64,000 nucleotides of DNA from a virus: positions 47,865 through 111,864 of IMG/VR virus record IMGVR_UViG_3300045988_094716; one strand, given 5' to 3'. The translations under genes were made by a program, and so were the position numbers. Positions 36,021-50,741 of the stretch are shown piece by piece; position 1 is the first letter of the stretch, and each line of letters starts with the position of its first letter. The notes beneath the pieces were generated by a model. That model saw nothing but the letters and a program-made list of their open reading frames with translations. It searched no databases and had not been told where the DNA came from.

Positions 36021-36029
36021 GGTGAGTAT

Positions 36030-36785
36030 ATGGTTTATATTACAGGCGATATTCACGGCGACTTTAATCGTCTCTTAAAGCTAAATAAGTTTTGCATTAG
36101 ACACAATCTTGGAAAGAATGATTGGATTATCTGCCTTGGCGATGCTGGTTTGAATTACTACGGCAAGGATGATTCTCGTGAATGGAGCATTAAGACCATT
36201 GCTGCGGACATCCCTGCGAATTTATTCTGCATTCATGGAAATCACGAGCGCCGCCCGTCTCGTAAGGATGGTTACAAACTAAGGAAGATTTGTGGTGATA
36301 TTTGCGGAAGAGTGTGGTATGACCCGCAGTTTCCAAACCAGTATTTTGCTATTGATGGTGAGGTTTACCAGATTCTTGCTGATAGGGAAATTCTGAACTG
36401 TCTTGTTTGTGGCGGAGCTTATTCCGTAGATAAATGTTATCGGTTGGAGCGTGGGTGGAATTGGTGGTCGGATGAACAGCCGAATGAAAAGACCAAGAAA
36501 AAGATCTGGAATATTACACATGACCCTCAAATTGATGATATTGATGTTATGCTCACGCATACCTGTCCATTCCGGTTCATTCCAACTGAATTGTTTATCG
36601 GTGGTATTGATCAAAGCACAGTAGACCAGTCAACTGAAATATTCTTTGATAATATATACGAATGCTATCCTAACGATTGTAAACCATTCTGGTACTTCGG
36701 CCATTTCCATGGTAACAAGTACACCGATGACTATGTGATGCTTTTCGACGACGTTGTTAAATTTGGAGATAAGAGGAAGGAGTAA
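36030..36785 (+). CDS. calcineurin-like metallophosphoesterase
   Basis: GDIHGD, CLGDAG, GNHE motifs. Confidence 0.7.
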   Translation: MVYITGDIHGDFNRLLKLNKFCIRHNLGKNDWIICLGDAGLNYYGKDDSREWSIKTIAADIPANLFCIHGNHERRPSRKDGYKLRKICGDICGRVWYDPQFPNQYFAIDGEVYQILADREILNCLVCGGAYSVDKCYRLERGWNWWSDEQPNEKTKKKIWNITHDPQIDDIDVMLTHTCPFRFIPTELFIGGIDQSTVDQSTEIFFDNIYECYPNDCKPFWYFGHFHGNKYTDDYVMLFDDVVKFGDKRKE

Positions 36786-36787
36786 GA

Positions 36788-39700
36788 ATGTCAAGTAGTC
36801 TACACACGCACTCAAATTACAGTCTGCTAGATGGGTTCTCTTCTCCAGAAGAAAATCTAAAAAGAGCATCTGAGCTTGGTCTGAAAGCCATTGCCATTAC
36901 GGAACATGGTGAGGTAACGAGCTGGCCGTACTATTCAGAATTAAAAGACAAGTATCCGAACGTCAAACTTCTTTATGGTATCGAGGCATACGAGTGTGAA
37001 GATAGGGAAGTCAAGGATAAGAACAGCAAATATTGGCATTTAATCATTATTGCCAAGAACGAAGCTGGCCGTCAGGCAGTTAATCGTTTGTCTACGCTTG
37101 GTCATCTTCGTGGTTTTTACAGCCGTCCTCGCATTACAAAAGAGGACATCGCCAAAGAAGACACGAATAATCTGATTATTTTATCTGCTTGTTTGGTGAG
37201 TAGGTTGTCCAGAACGGATGATTATGACACTTGTGTCAAACTGGTTCAAGAGTATAAGAGCTTATTCCCCCACTATTATCTTGAGGTCCAGGCTCACGCA
37301 AACAGTGAACAGGCAAAATACAACCAGAAAATCATGCGGTTGGCAAACGATACTCATATAAAAGTAGTCGTCACAAACGATGTTCATGCAGCTACCAAAG
37401 AGGATCTTTATTATCAAGACTACTTCCTTCGTATCGCACATGATACGGAAACTGCCGCAGAGATCTATGAAGGATGTTATTTCATGTCTCGTGAAGAGCA
37501 ACATGAAGTTCTTGACGGACAGATTGGATATGATGCAGCAGAATGGTGTATCAACAACACTGATGAGGTTGCTGACTTGTGTGACTATGTGGATATGCCT
37601 TGGCACGAACCTGAACTTCCTAAAATCGAGATTCCTCCACAGTATTCCAACTCAGCAGCTTACTTGAAAGACCTTGTAAAAGAGGGATGGAAGAAACGTG
37701 GCATCGATAAGTTTGATGTAGAGAAACAGAAAATCTACCGCAAGCGTGTTGATGATGAGCTGTATGTTATTGAACAGAAAGACTTCTGCGACTACTTTTT
37801 GATTCTGGTTGATTACATCAACTGGTGCAAGCAAAATGATGTCATTGTTGGCCCTGGTCGTGGTTCTGCCGCTGGTTCTCTTGTATGTTATCTGATTGGT
37901 ATTACCCAACTTGATTCAATTAAGTACGAGCTTGACTTCGGACGATTCCTTACTATTGAGCGAAAAGACCTTCCTGACGTTGATGTGGATGTTAGCGACC
38001 GCGCAAAGGTTGTTGAGTATTTGACACAGAAGTACGGAGAAGATCGAGTAGTTCAGGTTATGAACATCGTGTACACTACTCCGGTCACTTCGATTCAAGA
38101 CGTTGGTAAAGTTCTCGGCTTTCCGTATGCTGAAATAAGAAAAATCAGCGAGAAGTTCGTTCAAAAGACATGGAAAGATTGCCTTGAAGCCAACCCGGAA
38201 GTTGCAAAAAATCCGAAGTATCAGGAATTACTTGACATCGCAAGTCACATCAATGGTCGTCCACGAGGATATGGCATCCATGCTGGTGGTGTTATCGTCT
38301 GCCGACATCCTTACTATGAATATATCGGTATCCGGCATGGTACTGACGGAGAGCACGTTATTTCCGTTGACAAGGTGATGGACGAGAAGATTGGACTTGT
38401 TAAGTTTGATATTCTTGGTGTTGCGTCGCTGGTTGCCATTGATGAAGCGAAGCGTGAGGATAATATTCCAGACTGGGAAATTGATATCAATAATCCTGAG
38501 TTTGAAAACGACAAGGCAACTTACGATTTGATTTGTTCTGGCCGGACAGATAATCTATTCCAGATTGAATCGTCCGGCATGAAAGATCTGGTTGCGCAGC
38601 TTCAGCCGAGGTCGATTGAAGAGTTGTCTGCTCTGATTGCTCTTTATCGTCCTGATGCAATGCCGTCGATTCCTACATACGTTGATTGCAAGTACCATCC
38701 TGAACATATTCACTACTTCCATCCTGATATGGAACCAATTTTCCGCAGTACCTATGGCGTGAATATCTATCAGGAACAGAGCATGAAGCTCACGAAGGTC
38801 TTTGGTGGTAGAAACGATGCCGGTGCTGATAGAATGCGTAAGTGTTTGGCAAAGAAGAAACCTGAGAAAGTCAAGGAAGAAGTCGAACTTCTTCATGATG
38901 AGATTATTGCGAATGGATACGACAAAGAGACCGCCGAGTACATTTGCAACGAGTTGTCAACGAAGGGCGGCTATGGTTTCAACGCCAGTCATTCTCAGGC
39001 ATACGCTGTTATTTGCCTTCAAACGGCATACTTAAAAGCACATCATCCGCTTGCATTCTTTAAGGCTATGCTGAACCTAAATAAAGCAAAGGTTGGTAAG
39101 GTCAACAAGATTATGGTGGATGCACGCAGCTTTGATATTCAGATTCTTCCTCCGAGTATCAATCGTTCCGGTATGGATTTCACTGTGTCAAATGGTAAAA
39201 TCCTGTTTGGCTTATCTGCTATCGGTGGTATTGGCAATACGCTTGCTGAGGCTATCATTGCAGAACGAGATAGAAATGGAAAATTCAAGGGGCTTGAAGA
39301 TTTTACAAGTCGTGTCCGTGCAACGAAAACACAGATAATTGCATTGGTTAAATCCGGTGCGATTCCTACAAAGAACAAACGAGTATTTTTGGAAAAGTAC
39401 ATTGCCAGCGGGCTGGAACAATCCGAGTTTAAGCCTGTGAACACGCTTCCTACTAAGGCGGTTTTGCTGAGTAAGTGGGGTATTGATACGGAGCATTATA
39501 AGGTTGGTAAAAAGGTTGATAAAGAAACTGTCCTACGAATCTATAACGAAAAGCGCCGTGTCGTACATGAAACTGAAAAGCTCAAGAAAAAAGAATCATA
39601 TATGGCCGAGCAATCGGAGAAGTATTTGAAAGACGAACAGTTCTGGGAGTTCCAGACGCTGCAGACGTTCATCATTGATAAGAACCCGTTTGAAAAGGCA

Positions 39701-40003
39701 TACGAGTATATTCAGGACTTTTCGGAGCTTGAAGAAGGTGATTCTTGTGTGCTTGTTGGTATTATCGCAAAGATCCAAAAGAAGAAAACAAAGACTGGTA
39801 TGCAGTTTGCATTTGTAAATCTATATTCTGGCGATGGTATCATTGAGCTGACCGTATGGCCGAGGGTCTTGTCAGATTATCAGGACTTGATTGTAAAGGG
39901 AAGTCAGGTAGCTGTGCTCGGAAAAAAGGAAGATGAATCGCACGTTATTGCGAATGACTTCAAGCCTTATAGGCAATGGCTGCATGATAGAGAGATAAGG
40001 TAA
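36788..40003 (+). CDS. dnaE: DNA polymerase III alpha subunit (DnaE-type, 1071 aa)
   Basis: N-terminal PHP domain HTHSNYSLLDGFSSPEE; typical length and organisation. Confidence 0.85.
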   Translation: MSSSLHTHSNYSLLDGFSSPEENLKRASELGLKAIAITEHGEVTSWPYYSELKDKYPNVKLLYGIEAYECEDREVKDKNSKYWHLIIIAKNEAGRQAVNRLSTLGHLRGFYSRPRITKEDIAKEDTNNLIILSACLVSRLSRTDDYDTCVKLVQEYKSLFPHYYLEVQAHANSEQAKYNQKIMRLANDTHIKVVVTNDVHAATKEDLYYQDYFLRIAHDTETAAEIYEGCYFMSREEQHEVLDGQIGYDAAEWCINNTDEVADLCDYVDMPWHEPELPKIEIPPQYSNSAAYLKDLVKEGWKKRGIDKFDVEKQKIYRKRVDDELYVIEQKDFCDYFLILVDYINWCKQNDVIVGPGRGSAAGSLVCYLIGITQLDSIKYELDFGRFLTIERKDLPDVDVDVSDRAKVVEYLTQKYGEDRVVQVMNIVYTTPVTSIQDVGKVLGFPYAEIRKISEKFVQKTWKDCLEANPEVAKNPKYQELLDIASHINGRPRGYGIHAGGVIVCRHPYYEYIGIRHGTDGEHVISVDKVMDEKIGLVKFDILGVASLVAIDEAKREDNIPDWEIDINNPEFENDKATYDLICSGRTDNLFQIESSGMKDLVAQLQPRSIEELSALIALYRPDAMPSIPTYVDCKYHPEHIHYFHPDMEPIFRSTYGVNIYQEQSMKLTKVFGGRNDAGADRMRKCLAKKKPEKVKEEVELLHDEIIANGYDKETAEYICNELSTKGGYGFNASHSQAYAVICLQTAYLKAHHPLAFFKAMLNLNKAKVGKVNKIMVDARSFDIQILPPSINRSGMDFTVSNGKILFGLSAIGGIGNTLAEAIIAERDRNGKFKGLEDFTSRVRATKTQIIALVKSGAIPTKNKRVFLEKYIASGLEQSEFKPVNTLPTKAVLLSKWGIDTEHYKVGKKVDKETVLRIYNEKRRVVHETEKLKKKESYMAEQSEKYLKDEQFWEFQTLQTFIIDKNPFEKAYEYIQDFSELEEGDSCVLVGIIAKIQKKKTKTGMQFAFVNLYSGDGIIELTVWPRVLSDYQDLIVKGSQVAVLGKKEDESHVIANDFKPYRQWLHDREIR

Positions 40004-40015
40004 GAGGATTGTAAA

Positions 40016-43000
40016 GTGGCAGATAAGAAATTTAATGAAAATATGATCCGTTGCTACATCAGGATAAAACGAGTCTTTTATCCGAAAGATGGGAGGGAGG
40101 TGGAGCCCGGCGGCTTCGCCACTTTCTCTGCCGAGGTGGTAAAAGTCAAGCAGGGAAATCCTATCATGAGCCGATACAGCGACCTTCGGCTAAAAGGCAA
40201 CGTTCCTAGCCTCGATATGGATAAAACTTATTCGTTCTGTGGTGAGTATGTTCACCATGAAAAGTTTGGTGACCAGTACAAAATCATCTATATGAATGAG
40301 TTTCAAGAGATCGCTGATCCGGAAGAACAAAAAAGCTTTCTCCGTTTTATTTTGACTGACCATCAGTTTGAGATGCTTTACGAAGCATTCGAGAATCCGT
40401 ATGAAATCATCAAGAATGGTGACATCAAGTCCCTTTGTACTGTTAGCGGTATTACGGAAGGTCGAGCACAAAAGATTGTTGACTCTTTTGAAAACAACAT
40501 TGATAACAGTGAAGCGTACACGAAACTGATTGAGTACGGTTTGACTCCCAGTGCTATTGAAAAGCTTGTTCGTCAGTATCACGGTGCAGACACTCTGGTA
40601 AGAAAAATTGAGGAGAATCCTTACGTCCTGATCGATGATGCGTATGGCATCGGCTGGAAAAAAGCTGACGCTCTTGCTTTGAATATGGGTTTAAAGCACA
40701 ATTCGCAATTCAGAATCGAAGCTTACGTCATGCATTTTCTTGCCGCCCGTGCCGAAGAAGGCAATTCTATCATTCCGGCAAACCAGACAATCAATAGCTG
40801 TATCAAGGAACTTGAATTGAACGAGGGAGACCAAGAGGTCATTAAGAGGGCACTTTTTCATCTGCATGATGTACGTGAAACACTTTGGTGGAGCGATGAC
40901 CGTCAGGAATTTGCTTTAACTAGAGTGTGGAATCTGGAAGATAGTATTGCGAAGGAAATCAAGCGTCTGGCGGATGCTCCTGTTGAGCCGATTGGTCGAA
41001 ATATGGATGCAGCAATCAATGAGGCAGAAAATGCGCTTGGTATCGAATATACAGAAGAGCAAAGAGATGCTATTAAAAAGGTATGCTCTAGCAACGTCTG
41101 TATCTTAACAGGCTACGGCGGATGCCTCGATGCAGAGATGGAGTTCTTTAATGGTGTCCAATGGAAAAAAATGAAAGATTATGTTAAGGGCGACAAAGTT
41201 CTTCAATATAATGAAAATGGGACTACAACGCTTGTTGAGCCTGAGAAATATGTAAAATTCAAATGTGAATATCTATATCACATGAAAAACAAGTCGGGTA
41301 GTATCAATCAACTATTGAGTGCAGAGCATAATGTTGTTTACTTGACCAGCAAAAACAATTTAGCTAAAATCCCAATGTGGGAGTTGTATCAAAGAAATAT
41401 TAAACGAAAGTCTGGGTTTAACGGACATTTTATAACAACGTTTAATTATGATGGTCCAGGAATCGATTTGAGCGATGCGGATATTAGACTAATGTGTGCT
41501 GTTATTTGCGATGGATCGTTTTTGAAGGATCATAAATCAGCTTGGTGTAGAGTAAACGTAAAAAAAGAGCGAAAGAAACTTCGCATGAGAAGACTTCTTT
41601 CGGAAAGTGGTAGATACTTTGATGAGCATCAGTGGAATCCAAAAGACTTAGAATATTCGAACTTTGTCTTTTACGCTCCAAGAAAAGAAAAAAGATTTAC
41701 TTCGTATTGGTATAGCTGTAATCATCATCAGCTAGAGGTAATTTGCGATGAGATTCTAAATTGGGACGGTCATGTGAAAGAGGGGAGACGGAAAGATTTT
41801 AGTACACTGATTAAAGAAACGGCAGATTTTATTCAGTTCGCATTTTCTTCTTGTGGTTATCGTTCTGTTGTACATGAATCAAATATTGAACGGCACGGTA
41901 GAATGGTCACAGAGTATAATGTTCATATTGTGCAACACTCGAATGGAAAGGTTTCTCTTATGACAAAAGGCAGTAAAAGCGATATTGATATTGTTCGTTC
42001 AAGCGATGGATATAAGTATTGTTTTACTGTTCCGTCTCATATGTTTCTGACAAGATATAATGGAAGAATTTGTGTCACAGGTAACACTGGCAAAAGTACC
42101 GTTGTCGCTGGTGTTCTAAAGGTTCTTCGTGGTAAGTCTTTTGCTCAGACTGCACTTTCTGGTCGCGCCGCAGCTCGTATGCAGGAGATTACTGGTCAGG
42201 ACGGTAAGACTATTCACCGTCTTCTTGGATATGACATCGAGAACGGTGGGTTTGTTCACGATAAGGACAATCCTCTGGATGAGGACATTATCATTCTGGA
42301 TGAGACCTCTATGGTTGGTGCTCAATTGTTTTACGATTTGATTCAGGCAATCGAAACTGGCAAGCGATTCATCATGATTGGTGATGACGGCCAGCTTGAG
42401 AGTATCGGTATGTGTAACATCTTCAAGGATATGCTTGCATCTAAGGTTGTTCCTGTGGCTCGTTTGACTAAGATCCATCGTCAGGCAGCCAAGTCTGCAA
42501 TTATCACGGAGAGCATTAAGGTTCGTAACGCTACGCAGTTGGTTCCTTATGGCTGGGCTGGCAGTGAGATTCGTGGTGAACTTCGTGATTTGGAGCTTGA
42601 TATCTATAAAGACGCAAGTGAGTCATTCAATCACATCATCAATCAGTACCGTACCTTATATAATAAGGTAGGGAATGATAGTTCGAAGATTCAGATTGTA
42701 CTTCCACAGAAGCTGCGTGGCAGTATCTGCACCTACGAAGTCAATAATGCTATTCAGGAAATTGTGAATCCGAGTCGTGGTCAAGCAGAAGCAAAAGTCA
42801 CAATCTATGGTGATGGCAAGGATAGGGTGTATACTCTGCGTGAGGGCGATCAGGTCATCATCAACAAGAACAACTATGAGCTTCACACATACAATCTCAA
42901 GACAAATAAAAAGGAAGAGAAGTGTCCGGTGTTCAATGGGAACCGTGGCATTATCCGAAAGATTGAAAGTAGTTTTATTCTGGTTAATTTTGACCAGTGG

Positions 43001-43309
43001 GGAACGATCTTCATCCCTCATTACTTTGGCGGAAACAATATCTGGGCAACACTTGAGCTTGCTTATGCTTTGAGTTGTCATAAACTGCAGGGCAGTGAAG
43101 CTCCGTATGTGATTGTTGGTATGGACAACTCTGCGTACTTGATGCTGACGAGAGAATGGCTCTATACGGCCATCACTCGTGCAAAGAAGTATTGTATGAT
43201 TTGCGCCGAAACTCACGCTCTTGATCGGGCTGTAAAGACTTCGAGAGTTCCATATAAGCGGACGTTCTTGAAGGAATTTTTACGGAAAGAATTTTCAGAA
43301 AAGCATTGA
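40016..43309 (+). CDS. RecD-like SF1 DNA helicase (RecD2-type with HhH) interrupted by an intein (GTG start)
   Basis: split Walker A ILTGYGG/TGKST flanking the intein; C-terminal SF1 helicase motifs (LQGSEAPYVIV, TAITRAKK). Confidence 0.7.
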   Translation: MADKKFNENMIRCYIRIKRVFYPKDGREVEPGGFATFSAEVVKVKQGNPIMSRYSDLRLKGNVPSLDMDKTYSFCGEYVHHEKFGDQYKIIYMNEFQEIADPEEQKSFLRFILTDHQFEMLYEAFENPYEIIKNGDIKSLCTVSGITEGRAQKIVDSFENNIDNSEAYTKLIEYGLTPSAIEKLVRQYHGADTLVRKIEENPYVLIDDAYGIGWKKADALALNMGLKHNSQFRIEAYVMHFLAARAEEGNSIIPANQTINSCIKELELNEGDQEVIKRALFHLHDVRETLWWSDDRQEFALTRVWNLEDSIAKEIKRLADAPVEPIGRNMDAAINEAENALGIEYTEEQRDAIKKVCSSNVCILTGYGGCLDAEMEFFNGVQWKKMKDYVKGDKVLQYNENGTTTLVEPEKYVKFKCEYLYHMKNKSGSINQLLSAEHNVVYLTSKNNLAKIPMWELYQRNIKRKSGFNGHFITTFNYDGPGIDLSDADIRLMCAVICDGSFLKDHKSAWCRVNVKKERKKLRMRRLLSESGRYFDEHQWNPKDLEYSNFVFYAPRKEKRFTSYWYSCNHHQLEVICDEILNWDGHVKEGRRKDFSTLIKETADFIQFAFSSCGYRSVVHESNIERHGRMVTEYNVHIVQHSNGKVSLMTKGSKSDIDIVRSSDGYKYCFTVPSHMFLTRYNGRICVTGNTGKSTVVAGVLKVLRGKSFAQTALSGRAAARMQEITGQDGKTIHRLLGYDIENGGFVHDKDNPLDEDIIILDETSMVGAQLFYDLIQAIETGKRFIMIGDDGQLESIGMCNIFKDMLASKVVPVARLTKIHRQAAKSAIITESIKVRNATQLVPYGWAGSEIRGELRDLELDIYKDASESFNHIINQYRTLYNKVGNDSSKIQIVLPQKLRGSICTYEVNNAIQEIVNPSRGQAEAKVTIYGDGKDRVYTLREGDQVIINKNNYELHTYNLKTNKKEEKCPVFNGNRGIIRKIESSFILVNFDQWGTIFIPHYFGGNNIWATLELAYALSCHKLQGSEAPYVIVGMDNSAYLMLTREWLYTAITRAKKYCMICAETHALDRAVKTSRVPYKRTFLKEFLRKEFSEKH
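41123..42085 (+). mobile_element. intein (321 aa) with LAGLIDADG-type homing endonuclease, inserted in the helicase P-loop
   Basis: begins with Cys after ILTGYGG, ends ...NGRICVTGN followed by Thr; removal restores ILTGYGGTGKST; LMCAVICDGSF LAGLIDADG-like block; AT-richer than host gene. Confidence 0.65.
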
Positions 43310-47862: not shown

Positions 47863-47873
47863 AGGAGGATTAA

Positions 47874-49092: not shown

Positions 49093-49217
49093 GAGGTTTA
49101 CATAAATGAGAATGAGATACAACTGGGAAGAACCATTTGCAGCATTTGCCCTGTTTGTTACAATGTTGATTTTTGGCTTTGCCAAATTTGTTTTAAGATA
49201 ATCAAGGAGAAAAATAC

Positions 49218-50741
49218 ATGAATATGATGTTTATTGCAATTCCTGTCGTTGTTGTCTTTCTGATCGCCTTTGCATTTACTTGCTATAAGAAGGCTCCTCC
49301 TACTCAGGCAATCGTCGTAACAGGTTTTGGTCTGTCTAAGCCGAAAGTTATCTGTGGTCGTGGCGTGTTCGTCCTTCCGGTTATTCAGCGAGCTGACCGT
49401 CTGAATATGCGATTGCTCAAGATTGATGTCAAGACTCCTGAAACCGGTGTAAAGACTAAAGAGGGTGTTTCTCTGTGGCTGGACTCTGTTGTTACTGTTC
49501 AGGTTTACTCTGAGAACTCTACTGTAACTGATGATGAGATTAAGAGTGCCGGTTGTGAGGATGCAAAGACTTACATTAGTGCTCGTCAGCAGGCTGCTAT
49601 TTCCAACTTCCTTGGCATGAGTGAAGATGGCATTAACGAGAAGATCAACGATGTCCTTCAGGGCAATCTGCGAGAGATTGTTTCTGAGATGACTGTCAAC
49701 GATATCCTGACCAATCGTAAACAGATGGCAATTTCCGTTGTTGAGAATGCTCGTCCTGATTTAGCAAAGATGGGTCTGGAAGTTGTTACTTTCAATGTTC
49801 AGGATATTAAGGATGCTATTGATGCTCAGGGTCATAATCATGGTGTCATTGAGGCAATTGGTGTTCAGCAGGAAGAGCTGGTAAAGAAACAGGCAGAGAT
49901 TGCTAAGGCCGAAGCCGCTCGTGATATTGCTCGTGCTAAGGCGGATACTGCTCGTGAATCAAATGAAAAGGAAATTGAATCCAAGACCGCTATTGCACAG
50001 CGCAACAATGAGTATCTTCTGACTCAGGCCGCTCTGAAGGCGGAGGCTGATAAGGCAAATGCTGATGCAGAAGCTGCTGGTGAGATTCAAATGAATCTGC
50101 GTGATAAGGAAATTAAGGAAGCTGAAGCTGACGCAGCTATTGCAAAGCAGAAGAAGATGGTTGAGTTGGCCGCTCAGGAAGCAGAAGTTCGTCAGCAAAA
50201 GCTGGATGCGGAGATTCGCAAGCAGGCAGACGCCGACCTGTATAAGCGTCAGAAGGAAGCTGAAGCAAAGAAGTACGAAGCAGAGCGTTCTGCAGAATCC
50301 GCAAAGTTCGCTAAGGAACAGGAGGCAGAAGGCATCCGTATGGTTGGCATGGCGGAAGCTGAGGCCATCAAGCAGAAGGGTCTTGCTGAAGCAGAAGCTA
50401 TGCTGAAGAAGGCTGAAGCTTACAAGCAGTACAATGGTGCGGCTATGGGTGAAATGATCATTAAGATTCTTCCTAGCATTGCAGCTGAGGTTGCAAAGCC
50501 GCTGGCGTCCATTGACAAGGTTTCCATCATTGGCAGTAACGCAAATGGTGTTTCTGAGATTTCCGGCAATGTCCCAGCAGTCATGGCTCAGACTTTTGAG
50601 GCCGTTCGTGAAGCAACTGGCATTGATATGAAGGAAATTGTCCGTGCCAACAGTTACGATGCAAAGGTCACTAAGAATGTGAACCTTGTAAGCGATTCGA
50701 CGATTGTTTCTGAAAAGAACGATGCGCAGGATGCTGAGTAA
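49218..50741 (+). CDS. flotillin-like protein (SPFH/band-7 domain + Ala/Glu-rich flotillin repeats)
   Basis: N-terminal TM segment, SPFH core, then long AEAxAKAxA coiled-coil typical of FloT/YuaG. Confidence 0.75.
   Translation: MNMMFIAIPVVVVFLIAFAFTCYKKAPPTQAIVVTGFGLSKPKVICGRGVFVLPVIQRADRLNMRLLKIDVKTPETGVKTKEGVSLWLDSVVTVQVYSENSTVTDDEIKSAGCEDAKTYISARQQAAISNFLGMSEDGINEKINDVLQGNLREIVSEMTVNDILTNRKQMAISVVENARPDLAKMGLEVVTFNVQDIKDAIDAQGHNHGVIEAIGVQQEELVKKQAEIAKAEAARDIARAKADTARESNEKEIESKTAIAQRNNEYLLTQAALKAEADKANADAEAAGEIQMNLRDKEIKEAEADAAIAKQKKMVELAAQEAEVRQQKLDAEIRKQADADLYKRQKEAEAKKYEAERSAESAKFAKEQEAEGIRMVGMAEAEAIKQKGLAEAEAMLKKAEAYKQYNGAAMGEMIIKILPSIAAEVAKPLASIDKVSIIGSNANGVSEISGNVPAVMAQTFEAVREATGIDMKEIVRANSYDAKVTKNVNLVSDSTIVSEKNDAQDAE

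Follow-up and report, generated by a model that had tools for sequence, protein, structure and literature searches.

Inteins are known to favour the P-loops of ATPases, with RecD already listed among their hosts (PMC4760082), and the 'classic' P-loop insertion site is situated between the Lys and the Ser/Thr residues of the GK[ST] motif (PMC5050341). In phages, the intein of the Bethlehem RDF (phosphoesterase gp51/gp52) was reported to splice to completion, whereas its G316H derivative splices slowly with accumulation of the precursor; its endonuclease is toxic in Escherichia coli, and cloning was achieved only with an endonuclease-inactivating mutation (PMC5050341). Relatives that end in Gly ahead of the terminal residue are capable of splicing, and a Gly-to-His change is harmful (PMC5050341, PMC7891396). 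A second described system, the AceL NrdHF intein, is a naturally split class 3 intein encoded on a phage-like contig (PDB 6zgq, PMC7891396). Here, we describe a 321-amino acid (aa) segment that interrupts the gene of a RecD2-type SF1B helicase in a 64,000-nucleotide (nt) stretch of the viral record IMGVR_UViG_3300045988_094716 (positions 47,865 to 111,864; this whole stretch is referred to as the window), and which very probably represents a bifunctional mobile intein belonging to a large, phage-borne family.

The helicase gene (window positions 40016-43309; this and all features below are on the plus strand) was found to consist of a single uninterrupted open reading frame (ORF), which specifies a 1097-aa precursor and a predicted mature helicase of 776 aa. 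The N-extein (40016-41122, aa 1-369) terminates with the first half of the Walker A motif, G366-Y-G-G369 (nt 41111-41122), followed by the intein (41123-42085; precursor residues Cys370, encoded from nt 41123, to Asn690, ending at nt 42085) and the C-extein (42086-43309), which opens with the +1 nucleophile Thr691 and the remainder of the motif, T-G-K-S-T (nt 42086-42100). With a slash marking each junction, the translation reads ILTGYGG/CLDAEMEFF...RICVTGN/TGKSTVV. The initial annotation, made from the sequence alone, had placed a Cys-to-Asn insert of 321 aa at 41123-42085 with the Walker A motif split in this manner, and translation of the ORF bore this out to the base. Deletion of the segment converts GYGG/TGKS into GYGGTGKS, embedded in ILTGYGGTGKSTVV, and yields a 776-aa product; the P-loop expected to be recreated by excision was thereby obtained, and the predicted length (1097 minus 321) was matched in silico and equals that of a natural intein-less allele.

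Pfam searches of the 1097-aa protein identified OB_YrrC, HHH_RecD2, AAA_30/AAA_19, SH3_13 and UvrD_C_2 domains, with the AAA_30 and AAA_19 matches commencing at aa 691 and the helicase profiles being broken at the insert. The RecD2 model TIGR01448 matched the unspliced precursor in two stretches (464 bits) and the in silico spliced protein in a single stretch (aa 56-766, 489 bits). Both scores fall below the curated cut-off of 500 bits, which, given the full RecD2 domain set, indicates that the phage helicase is RecD2-like but not a strict equivalog. The GC content of the insert was 0.357, compared with 0.434 upstream and 0.442 downstream within the same gene, in agreement with the AT-richness noted before. 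No competing ORF of at least 60 aa was observed on either strand of the insert region, and no Rfam family was identified there, which argues against an intron. A group I/II intron or a free-standing endonuclease gene was consequently rejected, the reading frame being continuous, the Rfam search empty and a rival ORF absent.

To describe the anatomy of the insert, residue conservation was counted over 151 complete domains from the best 146 representative proteins of the family presented below, alongside a 32-member family alignment. The block A nucleophile Cys1 (41123-41125) is present in 32/32 and 150/151 members, respectively. Block B (41318-41329) reads S66-A-E-H69, providing Ser at B:7 (119/151) and His at B:10 (151/151), with Val71 at B:12; its counterparts in the alignments are TANH in the Bethlehem RDF intein and the block B region in AceL NrdHF. 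Block F (42005-42055) reads DGYKYC300FTVPSHMFLTR, in which Y-C-F is invariant across the 32-member alignment and highly conserved among the 151 domains (Cys in 151, Tyr in 149 and Phe in 146). Cys300 (nt 42020-42022) was assigned to F:4 based on the hY[C/D]hxV pattern and its 21-residue spacing to the terminal Asn, the same spacing being seen between Cys320 and Asn341 of the MP-Be DnaB intein (PMC2807308). Block G (42059-42085), NGRICVT319-G320-N321, starts at N313-G and contains Thr at G:5 (140 of 151), the penultimate Gly (139) and the terminal Asn (150), followed by Thr as the +1 residue. A block-G-like C-terminus with Thr at +1 had been proposed, and indeed HMFLTRYNGRICVTGN was located at aa 306-321, immediately followed by Thr. 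Conversely, the replacement of the penultimate His by Gly, which had been regarded as unusual, does not set this copy apart: with Gly at G:6 in 139 of the 151 domains, it is a family trait, and it is also found in phage inteins that splice (PMC5050341).

The LAGLIDADG homing-endonuclease domain spans approximately intein aa 110-272 (41450-41938) and comprises two alpha-beta-beta-alpha-beta-beta-alpha halves. The first LAGLIDADG helix (aa 118-130) and strand (aa 131-133), DADIRLMCAVICD130GSF (41474-41521), carry Asp130, which is retained in 147/151 domains, while the second helix (aa 201-215) and strand (aa 216-218), HHQLEVICDEILNWD215GHV (41723-41776), carry Asp215, retained in 146/151. Both helices end in an acidic residue and Gly, followed by a beta strand (ICD130G and NWD215G), and the second pairs with RQARLFLEEYRFTDG of the Bethlehem RDF intein in a profile alignment. 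The LAGLIDADG block LMCAVICDGSF of the initial annotation is therefore present (aa 123-133) as the first of two motifs, the second, VICDEILNWDG (aa 206-216), having been overlooked. A helix at aa 231-243 (ADFIQFAFSSCG) was also considered as the second motif and rejected, as it lacks a conserved acidic residue and the true motif is located at aa 201-216.

A structure prediction of the insert using AlphaFold, built from the 32-member family alignment, returned a mean pLDDT of 94.9 and a pTM of 0.92. The predicted model exhibits a HINT fold with a nested double-motif LAGLIDADG domain, in which the alpha-beta-beta-alpha-beta-beta-alpha fold is present twice. When this model was compared with the PDB using Foldseek, the top ranks were occupied only by endonuclease-bearing inteins (TliVMA, E 4e-16; PI-SceI, PI-PfuI, PhoVMA and PI-TkoII), followed by I-DmoI.

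The insert was shown to belong to an extensive family. A search of a collection of 5.8 billion proteins identified 42 homologues of the insert with 28-50% identity, most of them over the whole insert at 35-50%, and the family hidden Markov model (HMM) scores 435 bits on the window insert. Homologous inserts reside in terminase large subunits, deoxynucleoside monophosphate kinases, a guanylate kinase, IstB/DnaA-like and DnaC/IstB-like ATPases and PhoH, as well as in a type II secretion ATPase, a deoxynucleoside kinase, DnaB-like helicases/primase, RtcB, a metallophosphatase and an M15 peptidase. Nearly all homologues share the junction pattern ...G/C[VL]D..TE[FY]F...I[FC][IV]TGN/[CST]GK[ST], which places the element within Walker A, directly before xGK[ST]. 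The -1 residue is Gly in 137/151 domains, positions +2 to +4 are GK[ST] in 137/151, the TGN ending is present in 130/151, and the +1 residue is Cys in 86, Ser in 57 and Thr in 8. RecD2-like helicases interrupted by the intein at the same site as in the window account for at least 47 of the top 146 representatives.

Furthermore, tblastn detected the element in 180 sequenced phage genomes, including phages of Vibrio, Staphylococcus, Escherichia, Pseudomonas, Enterocloster, Bacillus, Prevotella, Acinetobacter and others, where the interrupted genes bear the names primase/helicase, PhoH, terminase, RtcB or RNA ligase. When 1.84 billion cluster representatives were searched by profile, at least 2075 clusters (50% identity) matched with E values of 1e-30 or lower, and 7980 did so at the looser limit of 1e-10. 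Curated resources do not capture this family: none of the 32 aligned members was matched by Pfam or NCBIfam intein models, indicating that its members are too divergent for the curated intein/Hint models, and the Pfam LAGLIDADG model PF14528 was matched by nine of the 32 (best E 2.6e-6), the window copy not being among them. The insert does match phrog_32482, named 'PhoH-like phosphate starvation-inducible', over profile positions 76-405 of 589 (E 1e-47); this profile was evidently built from intein-containing PhoH and may therefore misname any protein that carries this intein. Two complete family inteins occur in one polypeptide in six of the 146 representatives (P0163, P0164, P0170, P0190, P0209 and P0265), the second copy often lying outside the P-loop (e.g. 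...GE/C...GN/CD...). Within the window, a six-frame family search identified no second copy.

Comparison with described inteins placed the Bethlehem RDF intein as a distant member of this family (hhalign probability 98.2%, E 6e-14, 279 columns), the alignment encompassing block B, both LAGLIDADG helices, the block F Cys and TGN. Both are of similar length (317 aa for the Bethlehem intein) and share Cys1, block B (TANH in Bethlehem), Val at B:12, the block F Cys (in VWCLRVP) and the TGN end. However, their identity is ~22%, and the Bethlehem intein, from an actinobacteriophage, interrupts a metallophosphoesterase motif (GNHD/CSWT...HLTGN/SRA) rather than a P-loop, with Ser at +1. Across a 22-kb stretch (30000-52000) of the Bethlehem GenBank record, the family HMM matched only this RDF/phosphoesterase intein, and the annotated DnaB-like gene of that record specifies an intein-free product of 273 aa. 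The AceL NrdHF intein resembles the family in its Cys F:4 with Pro four residues on, Thr G:5 and TGN end, in being devoid of the F:13 and G:6 His residues, and in the absence of Trp at B:12 (Met in AceL NrdHF), yet it differs in its host gene, NrdHF, in having Ala1 and following the class 3 route via Cys124, in its split nature and in being accompanied by a free-standing GIY-YIG endonuclease gene instead of a nested LAGLIDADG domain.

RecD2-like helicase inteins of the Enterocloster phages CB457P2, CB473P2 and PMBT24 and of many metagenomic phages occupy the same site (GAG/C...TGN/CGKT). The allelic intein of CB457P2 is 47.9% identical to the window copy, compared with 25.5% for the exteins. 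These Enterocloster-type inteins differ from the window copy in that their +1 residue is mostly Cys or Ser, not Thr, and they are annotated only as hypothetical protein or exodeoxyribonuclease V; a literature search for inteins in Enterocloster phages returned no papers. The classical LAGLIDADG inteins (PI-SceI, PI-PfuI, PI-PkoII and TliVMA) exhibit 11-14% identity and no sequence-level match, and, unlike the window copy, possess the penultimate His, Asp at F:4 and a larger size with extra DNA-recognition regions. A preference for Walker A is shared with inteins in the P-loops of terminases from mycobacteriophages and of ATPases from bacteria and archaea (PMC5050341, PMC4760082). Compared with the classic P-loop site, the insertion point of the present family lies two residues upstream, before xGK[ST], such that the fourth variable residue of the loop becomes the +1 nucleophile.

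The insertion site was further examined in intein-less relatives. A megablast search of the helicase gene against 50,697 phage records returned no match, indicating that this collection holds no close sequenced relative. Intein-less phage homologues possess a continuous P-loop at this site, e.g. NSPAGTGKTT in Thomasclavelia phage TR-TP1 and NGKAGTGKTS in Brevibacillus phage Sundance. Searches with the spliced helicase retrieved two close protein clusters: P0043 (1097 aa, 97% identical, 348 member sequences), in which the intein is present, and P0044 (776 aa, 96% identical over its full length, 2046 member sequences), in which it is absent. The gene of the latter, represented by L005 (2331 nt), is exactly 963 nt shorter than the window gene and aligns without gaps to the excised gene at 92% identity. 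A further intein-less allele, on the 121-kb contig L006, shares every nucleotide with the window between -51 and +28 relative to the junction (...ACAGGCTACGGCGGA/ACTGGCAAAAGTACC...). The comparison with intein-less RecD2 homologues suggested by the initial annotation thus yielded a continuous AGTGKT-type P-loop, a 776-aa allele of 96% identity and an empty site with identical flanks. The L006 helicase is 570 aa as called, near the contig end, and beyond ~1600 nt from the start of its gene the resemblance to the window helicase breaks down (L006:5600-6054), which could reflect the end of the assembly, a terminal repeat or a real rearrangement.

Between the window and a second intein-bearing gene, L007, synonymous divergence (dS, Nei-Gojobori) was 0.30 for the N-extein, 0.30 for the C-extein and 0.05 for the intein, the last value representing only 9 synonymous differences. 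The corresponding ratios of non-synonymous to synonymous divergence (dN/dS) were 0.05, 0.02 and 0.16, respectively. The far lower dS of the intein suggests that it is considerably more recent than the split between its host genes, implying horizontal spread, and the extein values suggest that the helicase has been kept under strong constraint while bearing the intein, which implies splicing.

The commonest intein-less allele (L005/P0044) carries GLGG/CGKS in place of GYGG/TGKS, with site DNA reading ...ACAGGTCTTGGTGGA/TGCGGCAAAAGTACC.... When L005:3001-5331 was compared with the window (41088-41122 and 42086-42088), 16 substitutions were counted in the 39 nt from -35 to +3, versus 169 in the other 2292 nt, representing an excess near the insertion point with a Fisher p of about 1e-8. 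This substituted patch could render the target resistant to the endonuclease, derive from recombination or be the trace of a former intein with Cys at +1. At the +1 position of the P-loop, Thr is found in 94/117 intein-less RecD2-like homologues, whereas the 47 intein-bearing ones have Cys in 30, Ser in 13 and Thr in 4, a contrast which suggests that host loop and intein are co-adapted.

From the anatomy, predicted fold, family, exact empty site and signature of recent transfer described above, we infer that the window copy both splices and cleaves DNA. In the proposed scheme, the 1097-aa precursor, with its P-loop broken between GYGG and TGKS, presumably cannot act as a helicase until the HINT domain excises itself. 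Cys1 would undergo an N-S acyl shift aided by Ser66 and His69, the acyl group would be transferred to Thr+1, and Asn321 would cyclize without a penultimate His, a residue that the family appears not to use. The expected products are a 776-aa RecD2-type helicase with a GYGGTGKS loop and a free intein of ~37 kDa, the LAGLIDADG endonuclease of which (catalytic Asp130 and Asp215) would cut the P-loop DNA of intein-less alleles during co-infection, and repair from the intein-bearing copy would then spread the element by homing.

Several findings nonetheless weigh against this interpretation. When the insert alone was compared with Pfam (LAGLIDADG models at E up to 1), NCBIfam and PDB sequences, no intein, Hint or LAGLIDADG match was obtained, such that its recognition required the family alignment and the predicted structure; the sole NCBIfam match was weak and unrelated (YcgN family, E 0.0013). 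In addition, Thr at +1 is a minority state (8/151), the intein dS is derived from few differences, and two conserved positions deviate, with Met6 where the family mostly has Thr (Met in 1/32) and Tyr312 where it mostly has Arg (Tyr in 2/32). The failure of the window copy to reach any Pfam LAGLIDADG model, together with the decayed endonucleases described for many inteins (PMC8966425), is in line with an element that still splices but has a dead endonuclease, being fixed in its lineage and inherited only vertically. This scenario is considered unlikely, as both catalytic Asp residues are retained in the window copy and in ~97% of the family, the exteins show six times the synonymous divergence of the intein between the window and L007, and empty alleles are found alongside intein-bearing ones with the same flanking sequence. 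Loss of splicing, with the helicase reduced to a pseudogene by a decaying intein, would accommodate Met6 and Tyr312 and has a precedent in an inactive phage-derived intein (PMC3196547), yet is very improbable: the 1097-codon ORF is intact with every nucleophile present, the close intein-bearing cluster P0043 also carries CLDAEMEFF, and hence Met6, and comprises 348 sequences, and the exteins of two intein-bearing alleles, both with Met6, differ at a dN/dS of 0.02-0.05. That the segment is a genuine, non-excised accessory domain of the helicase, or an assembly artefact, can be virtually dismissed, since the Walker A loop would be broken, the same segment is found in many unrelated host proteins, the same gene occurs on independent contigs (L007) and a precise empty allele is known. 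The helicase-specific domain, which the initial annotation had named as a finding that would overturn it, was looked for and not encountered: the homologous inserts in unrelated proteins and the existence of intein-less orthologues rule it out. The proposal of a LAGLIDADG intein in the helicase P-loop is thus supported by the block residues, the predicted fold, the occurrence of the family in unrelated proteins and the empty alleles.

With regard to splicing chemistry, the class 1 marks Cys1, Ser B:7, His B:10 and terminal Asn321 followed by Thr+1 are present, and the penultimate His (G:6), which is usual but not obligatory, is replaced by Gly320; the insert lacks no obligatory feature of an intein or a LAGLIDADG endonuclease. 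Cys F:4 and Thr G:5 are at the same time two of the three class 3 signature residues (PMC2807308, PMC5222942), whereas the other class 3 marks, a nucleophile-free position 1 and Trp at B:12, are absent, the B:12 position being occupied by Val71 in the window copy and by V (82), I (30), L (11), M (9), F (8) or C (7) among the 151 domains. The near invariance of Cys1 argues that the class 1 first step is in use, while a class 3-like or relay route would also fit the fully conserved Cys F:4 and the relationship to AceL NrdHF. In such a route, Cys300, activated by His69 and Thr319, would attack the N-terminal junction or take over the Cys1 thioester, forming a block F branched intermediate prior to transfer to Thr+1. 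The conservation of Cys F:4 (151/151) and Thr G:5 (140/151) is compatible with this chemistry, as are the facts that the family profile retrieves a single PDB sequence, that of the class 3 AceL NrdHF intein (E 1.2e-5), which also terminates in TGN and is without the F:13 and G:6 His residues (PMC7891396), and that Thr+1 is typical among class 3 inteins. However, retention of Cys1 in 150 of 151 diverged members would not be expected were it dispensable, B:12 is Val instead of Trp, the family profile misses the canonical WCT structures (MsmDnaB1 and MchDnaB1) up to E 10, and the related Bethlehem RDF intein is treated as class 1 (PMC5050341), rendering a class 3-type or hybrid mechanism a rather doubtful prospect.

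The phage clade, named 'TGN inteins' here, combines the class 1 nucleophile Cys1 with the class 3 triad of Cys F:4, His B:10 and Thr G:5 and is devoid of both C-terminal His residues; its closest relative of solved structure, AceL NrdHF, is a proven class 3 intein. Tentatively, and with a low likelihood of being correct, the TGN inteins could link class 1 to class 3 as a natural intermediate or be ancestral to class 3, perhaps employing a two-cysteine relay from a Cys1 thioester via a branched Cys F:4 thioester to the +1 residue. If true, this would bear on the dispute over class 3 origin, in which one side derives class 3 inteins by divergence from a class 1 intein of a phage (Tori and Perler, cited in PMC3196547) and the other assigns them a separate origin from a protease-like lineage (PMC7664689).

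The genes neighbouring the helicase specify RecJ-like, metallophosphatase, Pol III alpha, ATP-dependent DNA ligase, SPFH/flotillin-like and NrdD proteins, representing a phage replication module that resembles those of large phages of gut Clostridia. This module is mosaic (window 36021-40003; L005:1335-2985; L006:1-3988; L007:1-2985). Pol III alpha, encoded just upstream of the helicase, is 1071 aa in the window and 1114 aa in L006 and L007, and in L005 its gene is absent at that place, with small ORFs instead. After the metallophosphatase, L005 and L006 carry a DUF7446 gene and a gene for a 107-aa product, neither of which is present in the window. An SPFH/Band 7 and flotillin-like protein of 514 aa is encoded at 49197-50738, between the replication genes and nrdD, and is uncommon in a phage replication module. 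In Staphylococcus phage PhiSepi-HH3 (MT880872.1, 78229-82062), a RecD2-like helicase is annotated as recD21 and recD22 with a hypothetical protein between them, suggesting that this helicase family is interrupted there in another way, e.g. through an intron, a free-standing endonuclease or splitting of the gene.

Inteins in phage P-loops, inteins in RecD and a Gly in the penultimate position have all been described previously, and the insert described here is a real and probably active intein that constitutes an ordinary case within a very large phage intein family. For annotation purposes, the helicase entry should distinguish a RecD2-like enzyme of 776 aa from an intein of 321 aa. The family is missed by current resources, and phrog_32482, which is largely this intein, can spread wrong names. 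The locus presents a clean three-allele polymorphism, consisting of an intein-bearing allele, an empty allele with identical flanks and an allele with a heavily substituted target site, which, together with the six-fold lower dS of the intein, renders homing among gut phages directly testable. Finally, members throughout the family pair Cys1 with Cys F:4, Thr G:5 and Gly G:6, providing a large set of natural sequences for relating class 3 to class 1 splicing.

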